The position numbers were made by a program, and so were the translations under genes. A stretch of 64,000 bases of DNA from assembly GCF_013167455.1 (NCBI RefSeq), contig NZ_CP038328.1. The stretch is one strand, 5' to 3'. Each line of letters starts with the position of its first letter. Positions within the stretch are counted from its first letter, which is position 1. This document shows, piece after piece, positions 48,602 through 54,175 of the stretch. The notes beneath the pieces are model-generated. The model was given only the letters and a program-made list of their open reading frames with translations, had not been told where the DNA came from and searched no databases. Source of the stretch: Escherichia coli O157:H7 (GTDB lineage Bacteria > Pseudomonadota > Gammaproteobacteria > Enterobacterales > Enterobacteriaceae).

Positions 48602-48604
48602 TGG

Positions 48605-48706
48605 ATGATGAAAAAAATAATTCCCGCCGTAGTCTGTTTGTTGCTTTGTAGTTGCACGACCTTTCCGCAAGCTGTCGCTCCGGTAAACGGTGATGCCTCC
48701 AATTAG
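48605..48706 (+). pseudogene. 5' stub of a lipoprotein-like gene, interrupted by the IS1-like element after codon 28
   Basis: ATG 48605 encodes MMKKIIPAVVCLLLCSCTTFPQAVAPVN (KK, hydrophobic stretch, Cys) ending exactly at the IS boundary 48688; the last 5 codons and the stop lie inside the IS left inverted repeat. Confidence 0.3.
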
Positions 48707-48745
48707 TTGAATTAAGGATATAATACTCGCTTTTAAGGATGTTTC

Positions 48746-49018
48746 ATGGTCACAGTTAACCTTCATTGTCCCCGTTGCCAGTCCGTTCAGGTTTACCGTC
48801 GCGGGCAGAACCCCAAAAGACATGATCGATTCCGCGGCCGTGACTGTCACCGGGTATTTCAGCTCAGTTACTGTTACGAGCCCCGTAAACCGGGAGTTAA
48901 AGACCAAATCGCTGAAATGGCTTTCAACGGTGCCGGGGTTCGCTATACTGCCCGTACGCTGAAAATCGGCATTAATACAGTCATCCGAACTTTAAAAAAC
49001 TCTCGCCACGAAGAATAA
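48746..49018 (+). CDS. insA: IS1-family InsA (zinc-finger/HTH transposition regulator)
   Basis: 90-aa ORF MVTVNLHCPRCQSVQVYRRGQNPKRHDRFRGRDCHRVFQL...GINTVIRTLKNSRHEE; CxxC...CxxC motif; A-run (TTAAAAAACTC) at its 3' end like the IS1 programmed frameshift site. Confidence 0.85.
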   Translation: MVTVNLHCPRCQSVQVYRRGQNPKRHDRFRGRDCHRVFQLSYCYEPRKPGVKDQIAEMAFNGAGVRYTARTLKIGINTVIRTLKNSRHEE

Positions 49019-49452
49019 CGTCATCCCCGGTCGCTCATGCTGATGTGGCACTCATCTGCAAACTTAGTCAGCAATGGAGCTTTGTCGGCAGTAAAGCGCG
49101 ACAGCACTGGCTCTGGTACGTGTACAACACGAAAACTGGTGGTGTTCTGGCCTACACTTTTGGCCCCCGGACTGATGAAACCTGTCGTGAATTGCTGGCG
49201 CTGCTTACCCTTTTACCATCGGCATGTTGACCACTGACGAATGGGGTAGTTACGCTAGAGAGTTACCAAAGGAGAAGCATCTGACTGGTAAGATTTTTAC
49301 TCAGCACATTGAGCGTAACAATCTGACCCTGAGAACCCGAATCAAACGTCTGGCCCGCAGAACCATCTGTTTCTCGAGTTCTGTAGAACTTCATGAAAAA
49401 GTCATCGGTGCTTTTATCGAAAATATATGTTCTACTAATTGGAGTCATCACC
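49000..49452 (+). pseudogene. insB: IS1-family insB transposase reading frame, interrupted
   Basis: InsB-like segments split over two frames (49045..49230 ...QWSFVGSKARQHWLWYVYNTKTGGVLAYTFG; 49224..49538 MLTTDEWGSY...TQHIERNNLTLRTRIKRLARRTICFSSSVELHEKVIGAFIE); the second frame has no stop inside the element and reads through into flanking DNA. Confidence 0.6.
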
Positions 49453-52800: not shown

Positions 52801-54016
52801 CGCCTTCACCCTGCGTGTGCAGGACTTCACGGCGGTTCAGGCTGTCGGTGATGGTGATGCGGTCTTTCTCATACTGATACGTGTAGCTTAAGCCTGCCGG
52901 GTTTAGCTGTTCTGTCACCCGCCCGTCGCTGTCGTAACGGTAACGGATTTCCGGCCGGCCCGTGTGACGGTGCGCCACCATCCGGCCCCGGTATTTATCA
53001 TCGTAAGTAAAGCTGCGCACCTGTTTGCCACTACGGTCATACACCACCGCCAGTTCGCCGCGCGGCGTCCAGCCATAGCGCACCAGCGGCGCGGCAGGTA
53101 AATTCTCCGGGTATTCCGGGTCGTGCGTCAGCCACACGGCAGACAGACGGATGCCGTTGTCCCGGCCATATTCGGTGTAACCCGGCAGGGTATCAGGAAA
53201 AGCGGACGGTTCCGTCCCGCCGGAAATGGCCTGCTGCCGGGCTTCTTCTGCCCGCTGCGCCTGCGTGGTCAGTACCAGCCGGAAGTGACGCCCGGCACCA
53301 TCCGTCACGCCGGTGATTTCGCCGCTGAATTCACCGGCGGCTTCGCGGTGGAACGTCTGTGTGCGCCCGAAGCGGTCCACCAGCCCGGTCAGTACCCGGT
53401 ACGGCGGCAGCGGCGCAGGCAGCACCTCATCCGCTTCCGGCACCCGCTCACACCAGCCGAGCAGCCACCACGGCCCCTGCGGACTGTTTGTCGCCAGATA
53501 ACGATGCGGACTTAAGCGGAGTTCTTCCGGCAGCGCCTGCCAGAGTGCGGCCAGCCGGTGACCTTCATCCAGTTTCGCCACGCCGCCGCGCACCAGCCAG
53601 AGTGACTCGCTGCGGCTGTAACCGTCCTCACCGGGAAACAGGTGCTCAAAATACAGGCTTCTGCCGCCGTTATCACTGAGTATCAGTGTGTTATCGCGCA
53701 GCTGTAAGCGGATATCCGCAGGCATTTTCCAGCCGGGGCCGAGGCTCCCCACCGGCGCGGGCGTTTTTGTCCGGTAACTGCTGTAGGTGCGGGAGAGGAT
53801 GAACGGCAGCGGGCCGGGCAGGGCGATGTCGGTTTCACCGGGAAGGACCTTTGCACCGAGCAGGGGATTGACCGGATGGCCGGACGTCACTCCGCCGGGG
53901 CACACCGAACAGGCCACGCCGGTGGGGGCACCAATGCGCACCCCGGCTGAACCCTGAACAATGCTACCGCCATACTGCGTCATGTCGCCCTGACGCGCCG
54001 CCGGTTTTCCGCTCAT
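49832..54016 (-). CDS. rhs: Rhs-family YD-repeat protein: PAAR-like N-terminal domain, YD-repeat shell, DPxGL-delimited variable C-terminal toxin domain
   Basis: 1394-aa ORF; N-terminus [42 protein letters not shown] as in E. coli Rhs proteins; many YDxxGR-type repeats; core ends ...[40 protein letters not shown]. Confidence 0.95.
49835..50275 (-). other. Rhs C-terminal variable (toxin) domain, 147 aa, family unassigned
   Basis: Sequence after DPLGL (codons 50290-50276): [147 protein letters not shown]; base composition switches from GC-rich core to AT-rich at the DPLGL codons. Confidence 0.85.
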
Positions 54017-54133
54017 CGTAAAATCCTTTTGAAATAAATAAGAACCAGAAGCCTAGCGCCAGTCAACAACAGGAAATGATAATGAGTTAACACCCCGGAA
54101 TTTTTCAGAATTTATAAAAGGCAAATTACAGGC

Positions 54134-54162
54134 ACAAAAAAAGCGCCGTGCGGCGCTTTTTT
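54134..54162 (-). terminator. rpmE rho-independent terminator (bidirectional hairpin)
   Basis: AAAAAAGCGCCGTGCGGCGCTTTTTT, GC stem flanked by A-run and T-run, 14 nt after the rpmE stop. Confidence 0.8.
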
Positions 54163-54175
54163 CGGAAATCCGGTC

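Follow-up and report, generated by a model that had tools for sequence, protein, structure and literature searches.

Analysis of the window, a stretch of 64,000 bases from E. coli O157:H7, revealed that it is collinear with strain TW14359, with 5 mismatches over its full length, and 100% identical to many O157:H7 genomes over 6.7 kb. Within it, yiiX and rpmE are separated by about 5.5 kb; in K-12 the two genes are only 60 bp apart and the site is empty, confirming the statement in a first-pass annotation of this DNA that they are adjacent there. The complete 1394-codon rhs gene, coupled ORF, AT-rich tail and IS1-family element reported in that annotation are all present between them. The features, in window coordinates, are as follows.

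47993..48601, plus strand: yiiX, left flanking core gene (ORF list and TW14359 annotation; the K-12 alignment ends at 48602)
48608..48688, plus strand: 5' stub of a TIGR02117-family lipoprotein gene, 27 codons, MKKIIPAVVCLLLCSCTTFPQAVAPVN, cut off by IS1H
48689..49452, plus strand: IS1H copy, 764 bp, transposase defective (Sakai repeat_region 'IS1H', 764 bp)
49508..49830, minus strand: dsORF-f3 pseudogene, presumed immunity gene (PGAP 'RHS element protein dsORF-f3, frameshifted')
49594..49830, minus strand: translated dsORF-f3 remnant, 78 aa (Sakai ECs_5768, 237 nt)
49832..54016, minus strand: rhs ORF, 1394 aa (4185 nt, uninterrupted)
49835..50275, minus strand: AT-rich Rhs C-terminal tip, aa 1248-1394 (147 residues), Tox-JAB-2/DUF4329, with E1276, H1320, H1322, S1346 and D1349
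50276..54016, minus strand: GC-rich Rhs core, aa 1-1247 (PAAR-like remnant, DUF6531, YD/RHS repeats, Rhs-associated core)
54017..54128, minus strand: locus-specific leader upstream of rhs (TTGACT 54066-54061, TCTTAT 54043-54038, AAAAGGA 54030-54024)
54136..54162, no strand assigned: bidirectional intrinsic terminator of rpmE and, in K-12, yiiX, AAAAAAAGCGCCGTGCGGCGCTTTTTT
54176..54388, minus strand: rpmE, right flanking core gene (ORF and annotation; co-oriented with rhs)

The insert had been delimited as 48602-54175; its size of about 5.5 kb holds, but not its right limit, since in the alignment the DNA absent from K-12 runs from 48603 to about 54122-54128. The terminator sequence is identical in K-12, a B-type strain and the window, and it is here that the three alleles of the site first coincide in sequence; its stem, GCGCCGTGCGGCGC at 54143-54156, lies between A7 and T6.

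Alleles of the yiiX-rpmE site

Among 5426 complete E. coli genomes, the right junction of the Rhs element was found in 2175, the left junction in 2174 and the Rhs tip in 2164-2169; the junctions, the leader and the tip were each single-copy in about 2170 genomes, and the carriers span many serotypes and hosts. A contiguous yiiX-rpmE junction occurred in 3197 of the complete genomes, 286 of which have a TIGR02117 gene. The shares of the three alleles were about 54% for the empty, K-12-like site, about 5% for the intact TIGR02117 lipoprotein gene and about 40% for Rhs with IS1H.

The lipoprotein stub aligns to the start of an intact 207-aa gene that strain AS19 carries in its yiiX-rpmE interval, and this homology ends at 48688; the product of the intact gene scores 225 bits against TIGR02117 (cutoff, 131). 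Because the third allele has this gene intact, the comparison of alleles shows that the Rhs/IS1H block has replaced most of the lipoprotein gene. IS1 elements are about 768 bp long and have inverted repeats of about 23 bp at their ends, insA/insB' with one programmed frameshift, and a target-site duplication of 8-9 bp. The terminal inverted repeats of the IS1H copy lie at 48686-48711 and 49430-49455 (26-nt arms, 88% complementary), and its transposase pieces fall in three reading frames (48746-49018, 49045-49230 and 49224-49538) and match NCBIfam transpos_IS1 positions 1-81 and 155-199. PGAP annotates this transposase as 'frameshifted', a pseudogene, with no intact insA/insB'. No target-site duplication was found, the flanking 9-mers CCGGTAAAC and CTTCTGATG being unlike, and IS1H was at one and the same place in every carrier examined.

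These data bear on the reading, suggested by the first-pass annotation, of a strain-specific, recently acquired and undescribed stand-alone Rhs island. Such an island would fit the absence from K-12, the AT-rich tip, the IS1 at one edge and the lack of linked T6SS genes, the last of which was borne out, as the annotation of the 64 kb of TW14359 collinear with the window contains no vgrG, hcp, Eag chaperone or other T6SS gene. However, identical junctions are shared by about 40% of the complete genomes, the defective IS1H sits without target duplication in the same place, and Jackson et al. (2009, BMC Genomics 10:584; PMC2935791) had already listed the site, located between yiiX and priA, as rhs position 11. 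The distribution counts and the literature thus refute the island reading, to which we attach almost no credence. The element does lie at none of the K-12 rhsA-E sites, as had been noted, and although K-12 and most E. coli lack it, the locus had already been described; the Rhs element beside rpmE is a commonplace, previously catalogued locus of E. coli and not a strain-specific novelty. The PGAP name 'dsORF-f3' suggests that it is RhsF of ECOR-50 (Zhao and Hill 1995). The 'RhsF/RhsFI' of PMC7618764 was rejected as a match to the window locus, being a different O157 locus, ECs0604.

Rhs core and C-terminal tip

The rhs product scored 2644.9 bits against the NCBIfam RHS_core equivalog NF041261 (cutoff, 2000) over aa 1-1247. 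A Pfam profile search, run on the protein in two parts, placed DUF6531 at aa 46-123 and yielded at least 11 RHS_repeat matches, and NCBIfam Rhs_assc_core covered aa 1170-1247; cores of this kind close with PxxxxDPxGL, here DPLGL at aa 1243-1247. Beyond this DPLGL, the AT-rich extension shares no homology with the main Rhs of strain MSB1_6C, and G+C, 0.61-0.68 in the core, drops to 0.30-0.38 at 49400-50400. A C-terminal displacement has occurred at the same site in MSB1_6C, where the window's tip and dsORF-f3 have been pushed downstream as an orphan. Between alleles of the yiiX-rpmE locus the core has a dN/dS of about 0.2, and the rhs ORF is 100% conserved in the O157:H7 genomes among the matches listed.

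PAAR-like sequence is confined to aa 2-29, which match only the final 27 positions of PAAR models (the last third of the domain). NCBIfam T6SS_PAAR_dom scored 15.3 bits against a cutoff of 124, over model positions 68-94 only, the match of the N-terminus to 4JIV had an E value of 0.58 over 28 residues, and Pfam PAAR_motif gave no match in the rhs protein; a complete N-terminal PAAR domain is absent. Among solved structures, the rhs protein is closest to T6SS Rhs effectors, namely, Tse5 (E = 1e-128), followed by RhsA and Tse15.

The tip matched PF14220 (DUF4329) with an E value of 3.7e-15. In a 49-sequence alignment, E24, H68 and H70 do not vary, S94 and D97 show conservation of at least 90%, and the query has all of them, leaving the JAMM motif (E, HxH, S, D) intact at five of five residues. 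A word-indexed protein search with the tip retrieved only near-identical E. coli sequences, a PDB sequence search gave nothing meaningful (best E, 0.15), and the family diversity was taken from an exhaustive search of representative proteins. A fold search with a confident model of the tip returned JAB/MPN (deaminase-like) fold matches, including Cap3 and BilC. By this model the tip is a JAB/MPN fold, an assignment that now has direct support. An earlier I-TASSER match to "proteasome lid" is probably accounted for by this fold of the O157 tip, as one of the lid subunits, Rpn11, belongs to the JAMM proteins.

Downstream ORF, leader and expression

The downstream ORF had been described as coupled to rhs, and its most likely start, ATG 49830, indeed lies 1 nt past the rhs stop and 8 nt past an AGGGAG ribosome-binding site, but what is read there is a 107-aa ORF cut to 78 aa by a frameshift. 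When it was aligned with the 324-nt alleles of strains C5 and MSB1_6C, which are intact, the frameshift fell in an A6 run at 49640-49645; the intact alleles have A7 there. Among 58 evenly sampled carriers, dsORF-f3 was out of frame in 27 (about 47%), in at least three different indel states, and it has been knocked out repeatedly, at two homopolymer tracts. Many major lineages, O157:H7, O104:H4, O111 and O121 among them, have the JAMM-type Rhs toxin intact beside this knocked-out ORF, their only candidate for immunity. The intact 107-aa dsORF-f3 had no Pfam match even at E ≤ 10 and no NCBIfam match, and these profiles did not detect in it Imm-NTF2-2, the partner reported for Tox-JAB-2; all of the homologues found were from E. 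coli, and a single-sequence AF2 model (pLDDT, 37) was discarded as unusable. The ORF is presumed, from position alone, to be an immunity gene, and a broken presumed immunity gene beside an intact toxin motif is unexpected for an active self-protecting module.

It is very improbable, in our view, that dsORF-f3 is a phase-variable immunity gene switched by slippage or that Tox-JAB-2 is harmless to E. coli devoid of its substrate. Under the second option, the enzyme could act on a ubiquitin-like conjugate in a eukaryotic host or on a conjugate of a bacterial Ubl/CBASS-type defence system, the latter being considered because the fold matches include Cap3 and BilC, and the toxin would be an isopeptidase and not a nuclease. 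The 'RNase' and 'nuclease' labels given to Tox-JAB-2 in the literature are predictions.

As the first-pass annotation had stated, rhs is co-oriented with rpmE and lies past the rpmE terminator, the stem of which is in between; because this terminator separates the two genes, it is reasonable to expect that rhs would need its own promoter. The TTGACT and the AAAAGGA before the ATG that had been pointed out are present, and the proposed −10 (TCTTAT) of this candidate promoter is weak. A promoter scan of the leader found no match of at least 9/12, and matches overall numbered 5 against 4.1 expected, with no excess over shuffled sequence. Terminator-like matches on the minus strand were seen at 54151-54131. 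The leader is present in one copy per genome, only in the 2176 carriers, at 99% identity or more in 2173 of them, and homology to rhsB ends 14 bp upstream of the rhs ATG. That the promoter region came from rhsC or rhsB by duplication together with the core is unsupported, because the leader was not found at other rhs loci by sensitive blastn.

The frameshifted dsORF-f3, here and in the sampled carriers, the defective IS1H, the fragmentary PAAR domain, the leader devoid of a promoter-scan match and the repression of the EHEC T6SS in culture (PMC7618764) are what a decaying relic would present, that is, an element that does nothing now in O157:H7 and persists by inertia. Decay is harder to reconcile with the uninterrupted 4185-nt rhs ORF and its conservation in O157:H7, the low core dN/dS and the five intact JAMM residues, and we consider a relic possible but rather unlikely. 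Alternatively, the module could act inside its producer, with an internal promoter near or in the AT-rich tip driving the toxin domain, alone or together with dsORF-f3, in the manner of a toxin-antitoxin or regulatory pair. Precedents exist at another rhs locus of the same organism, EHEC RhsF/RhsG (PMC7618764), and, reportedly, for Salmonella Rhs (PMC7043789), and the AT-rich region carries promoter-like hexamers, for example at 50121-50092 on the minus strand; however, that site is within the toxin domain, the scan total is at chance level, and with the antitoxin-like ORF truncated, an expressed active toxin should harm the cell. An intracellular role is thus improbable.

Proposed function and known Rhs systems

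We favor, at a probability of roughly 0.85, the reading that this allele of a three-state site encodes a shell and a JAMM/JAB toxin, that delivery would be by a T6SS, and that the element is probably silent or poorly deployed in O157:H7. The yiiX-rpmE Rhs element would represent one allele of an old E. coli polymorphism, and rhs would encode a YD-repeat shell protein, the putative toxin being the 147 C-terminal residues that follow the autocleavage motif DPLGL, a predicted metal-dependent hydrolase of the JAMM/JAB type (Tox-JAB-2). By analogy with Rhs effectors that have been solved and tested, the shell would enclose the toxin, the protein would ride the VgrG spike of a T6SS encoded elsewhere in the O157 genome, the toxin would be released into neighbouring bacteria, and dsORF-f3 would protect the producer. 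The O157 T6SS cluster does sit elsewhere in the genome and is H-NS-repressed (PMC7618764). The missing complete PAAR domain and the lack of vgrG, hcp or Eag chaperone genes in the 64 kb speak against this scheme. Silence or poor deployment in O157:H7 is probable because dsORF-f3 is truncated, PAAR is only a fragment and the leader is without a good sigma-70 promoter; the core is nevertheless maintained in evolution.

As a discovery the locus carries little weight, since its position, its variable tip and the fact that K-12 lacks it had all been published, and the element is common enough to appear in any E. coli genome survey. Of possible interest for work on Rhs/T6SS effectors is the JAB fold of the O157 tip, as are the presumed immunity gene broken in O157:H7 and about half of the carriers beside an intact toxin motif, and the third site allele with its intact TIGR02117 lipoprotein gene.

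Compared with Tse5 of P. aeruginosa (8cp6), RhsA of P. protegens (7q97) and Tre23 of Photorhabdus (7pq5), the window protein has in common the YD-repeat shell, the plug and the Rhs-associated core with DPxGL before the toxin, and its DUF6531 plug region, from P48 on, can be aligned with the beginning of chain B of Tse5. Unlike the solved PAAR-Rhs effectors, it has only about 28 PAAR-like residues before the plug, lacks transmembrane and prePAAR segments, and has neither vgrG nor eag next to its gene. The tip has the same motif (E, H[ST]H, S, D) as the Tox-JAB-2/DUF4329 family (Zhang et al. 2012, Biol Direct 7:18) and, as in that family, is fused to RHS repeats, while, unlike in reported Tox-JAB-2 pairs, its downstream ORF is not detectably Imm-NTF2-2. 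The rhsF-rhsFI and rhsG-rhsGI loci of EHEC (S-loop 44; PMC7618764), from the same organism, likewise pair an Rhs toxin with a small downstream ORF, and their expression can be uncoupled from the T6SS. The clade I Rhs elements of E. coli (Hill and colleagues' RhsA-B-C-F subfamily) likewise have a GC-rich 3.7-kb core, an AT-rich variable tip and a small downstream ORF; the core in the window hardly differs from the rhsB and rhsC cores, and the O157:H7 element differs by the 1-nt deletion in its downstream ORF. With the position 11 element of Jackson et al. (2009), it has the flanking genes in common, and nothing of substance differs.

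Boundaries and allelic states of the yiiX-rpmE site

The region 47900-54600 was 100% identical to TW14359, EC4115 and many more O157:H7 chromosomes, and the window was collinear with TW14359 over 64 kb, with 5 mismatches. The rpmE-yiiX gap of K-12 MG1655 is only 60 bp. The K-12 alignment ended at 48602, 1 base beyond the yiiX stop codon, and restarted at about 54123-54129, directly before the bidirectional terminator A7-GCGCCGTGCGGCGC-T6. These limits put the extra DNA relative to K-12 at about 5.5 kb, in agreement with the first-pass annotation. It comprises the following features.

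48608-48688, + strand: TIGR02117-family gene stub, first 27 codons, abutting the IS1H inverted repeat
48689-49452: IS1H, IS1 family, 764 bp, 26-nt terminal inverted repeats; the same 764 bp is annotated IS1H in Sakai
49832-54016, - strand: rhs open reading frame, 1394 codons (ORF list and translation)
54017-54128, - strand: leader upstream of rhs

The inverted repeats and the Sakai annotation bear out the IS1-family element reported earlier. Its transposase is broken into three reading frames (a pseudogene per PGAP), and since the 9-mers on either side are unlike, IS1H lacks a target duplication. In strain JS316, a second IS1, IS1F, lies inside the resident IS1H (3183-4634 of that locus). In AS19, an E. 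coli B derivative, an intact TIGR02117-family lipoprotein of 207 aa is encoded between yiiX and the rpmE terminator (1691-2314 of that locus). As the 27-codon stub runs straight into IS1H, the Rhs/IS1H block has taken the place of most of this gene.

Distribution of the site among 5426 complete E. coli genomes (junction-spanning queries, counted at at least 80% coverage)
Right junction (rpmE terminator, leader, rhs 5′ end): 2175
Left junction (yiiX, stub, IS1H): 2174
AT-rich tip and downstream ORF: 2164-2169; 1 copy each, chromosomal only
109-bp leader: 2175; 2173 of 2176 matches at least 99% identical
K-12 empty-site junction, contiguous: 3197
TIGR02117-family lipoprotein gene: 286

Like AS19, the 286 genomes with the lipoprotein gene have its 624 bp in the gap, and they belong to the 3197 "contiguous" ones. 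These counts resolved the site into three alleles: it is empty in about 54% of the genomes, holds the lipoprotein gene in about 5%, and holds Rhs and IS1H in about 40%. No copy of the 109-bp leader was found elsewhere in the 5426 genomes, sensitive blastn included. The position of IS1H was identical in every carrier inspected, which argues for one old event, with inheritance and homologous exchange thereafter.

The proposal of a strain-specific island thus did not hold, as the same junctions occur in about two-fifths of the genomes and the site is already catalogued: a known element of a well-known kind. Jackson et al. (2009) catalogued 11 sites of rhs genes across E. coli and Shigella, of which position 11 (K-12 map coordinate 4,125,000, in the yiiX-priA interval) was inferred to derive from duplication of position 5 (rhsC) after divergence from the B2-type strains (PMC2935791). 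Overall, the earlier observation was confirmed, and its interpretation was supported only in part, the locus having been described before. In Sakai, the gene is ECs_4864, adjoining rpmE (ECs_4863). At least five names for 49832-54016 invite confusion: rhsC (PGAP), rhsD (current Sakai RefSeq), RhsH (the former "RhsH protein" of Sakai; PMC4613885), RhsB (PMC7216683), and position 11. The "RhsF/RhsFI" of a 2025 NAR paper is another locus, ECs0604 (PMC7618764).

About 4% of carriers have a complex arrangement like that of MSB1_6C (378-9217 of that locus), where a full-length Rhs with a different tip and a sel1-repeat ORF are followed by an rhs fragment, ISAs1 and ybfB, the composite ending in a 1.5-kb orphan rhs fragment with the DUF4329 tip and an intact copy of its downstream ORF, dsORF-f3. 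It is textbook C-terminal displacement at the locus, and it looks like the reshuffled RhsF of ECOR-50.

Two further differences were seen outside the block. In the metJ-yiiX spacer (47956-47960), K-12 carries about 130 bp absent from O157:H7, and strain C5 has an IS621 insertion there; since IS621 targets REP sequences, a REP/BIME element probably accounts for the additional K-12 DNA. Beyond rraA (about 62616-64000), TW14359 annotates two hypothetical proteins in the place taken by zapB and glpF in K-12-like strains; this is probably an island specific to O157, lying at the window edge.

Rhs core and downstream ORF

The 1394-codon gene had an RHS_core equivalog (NCBIfam) score of 2645 bits versus a cutoff of 2000. 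Pfam placed DUF6531 at aa 46-123, at least 11 RHS repeats, an "RHS protein" motif and a C-terminal DUF4329 domain. G+C content was 0.61-0.68 in the core versus only 0.30-0.38 at 49400-50400. Among the O157, C5, JS316 and main MSB1_6C alleles, core dN/dS (Nei-Gojobori) was 0.18-0.20, consistent with purifying selection, to which gene conversion among rhs paralogues could add; the tip differed by 1-3 non-synonymous and 0 synonymous changes, too few to interpret.

The coupled downstream ORF of the first-pass annotation is present, its likeliest start being ATG 49830, 1 base past the rhs stop and with AGGGAG 8 nt before it, and in O157:H7 it is frameshifted. PGAP labels the pseudogene "RHS element protein dsORF-f3", which is Hill laboratory nomenclature for RhsF. 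Intact dsORF-f3 in C5 and MSB1_6C is 324 nt (107 aa), while in O157:H7 an A7 run is shortened by one A (49640-49645), which leaves 64 native and 14 aberrant residues; in JS316, the T-run next to it is one T shorter. These adjoining A7 and T9 runs (49628-49645) carry different 1-nt deletions by lineage. Among 58 full-length matches evenly spaced among 2169 carriers, 31 were 324 nt, 24 were 323 nt and 3 were 322 nt, so that about 47% were out of frame, O104:H4, O111, O121 and O157:H7 among them. This frame loss may reflect genuine decay or slippage, or in part long-read assembly error; some of the alleles may be homopolymer errors. The O157 state recurs in many independent assemblies, including Sakai (237-nt remnant, ECs_5768). 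Homologues were found in E. coli only. From its position, dsORF-f3 is presumed to be the immunity gene, and it is inactivated in O157:H7.

Expression and delivery

As described earlier, rhs is co-oriented with rpmE downstream of the terminator, and both TTGACT (54066-54061) and AAAAGGA (54030-54024) lie in the leader. With 17-nt spacing, TCTTAT is the best -10 available, and a consensus promoter scan of the leader gave no match; rhs expression in O157:H7 is probably weak. The reported absence of linked T6SS genes agrees with the annotation of TW14359, whose equivalent region lacks vgrG, hcp and any further T6SS gene.

Among solved structures, T6SS Rhs effectors are the nearest relatives, led by Tse5 (E = 1e-128), with RhsA, Tse15 and Tre23 next. 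Upstream of P48, only residues 2-29 are PAAR-like, a resemblance covering the last third of PAAR only; T6SS_PAAR_dom (NCBIfam) scored 15.3 bits versus a cutoff of 124, the N-terminus matched 4JIV at E = 0.58 and an eCIS spike-tip protein at E = 0.022, and Pfam PAAR_motif had no match in the protein. These partial, sub-cutoff matches indicated that a complete PAAR domain is absent.

Toxin tip and comparison with known systems

An exhaustive search with aa 1253-1394 returned 373 cluster representatives at E ≤ 0.001. In a 49-sequence tip alignment, E24, G27, H68, H70 and T117 were invariant, and S94 and D97 were conserved in at least 90%; in the full-length protein, E1276, H1320, H1322, S1346 and D1349 form the JAMM motif E...HxH...S..D. 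Most likely, a T6SS-associated Rhs shell would deliver this tip as a JAMM-type hydrolase, and in O157:H7 it would do so with the presumed immunity gene inactive and expression probably weak. The EHEC T6SS is reported to be repressed by H-NS in culture (PMC7618764). Family membership suggests T6SS delivery, with the caveat that, unlike T6SS PAAR-Rhs effectors, this gene has neither a complete PAAR nor linked spike or chaperone genes. Its alignment with Tse5 chain B starts at P48, which pairs with residue 1 of that chain. The Tox-JAB-2 immunity partner of Zhang et al. is the Imm-NTF2-2 family (PMC3482391), of which dsORF-f3 is not detectably a member, the intact protein having no Pfam or NCBIfam match. 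The JAMM motif of the O157 tip agrees with the Tox-JAB-2 domain (DUF4329 in Pfam) named by Zhang et al. (2012), who predicted it to be a nuclease (PMC3482391).
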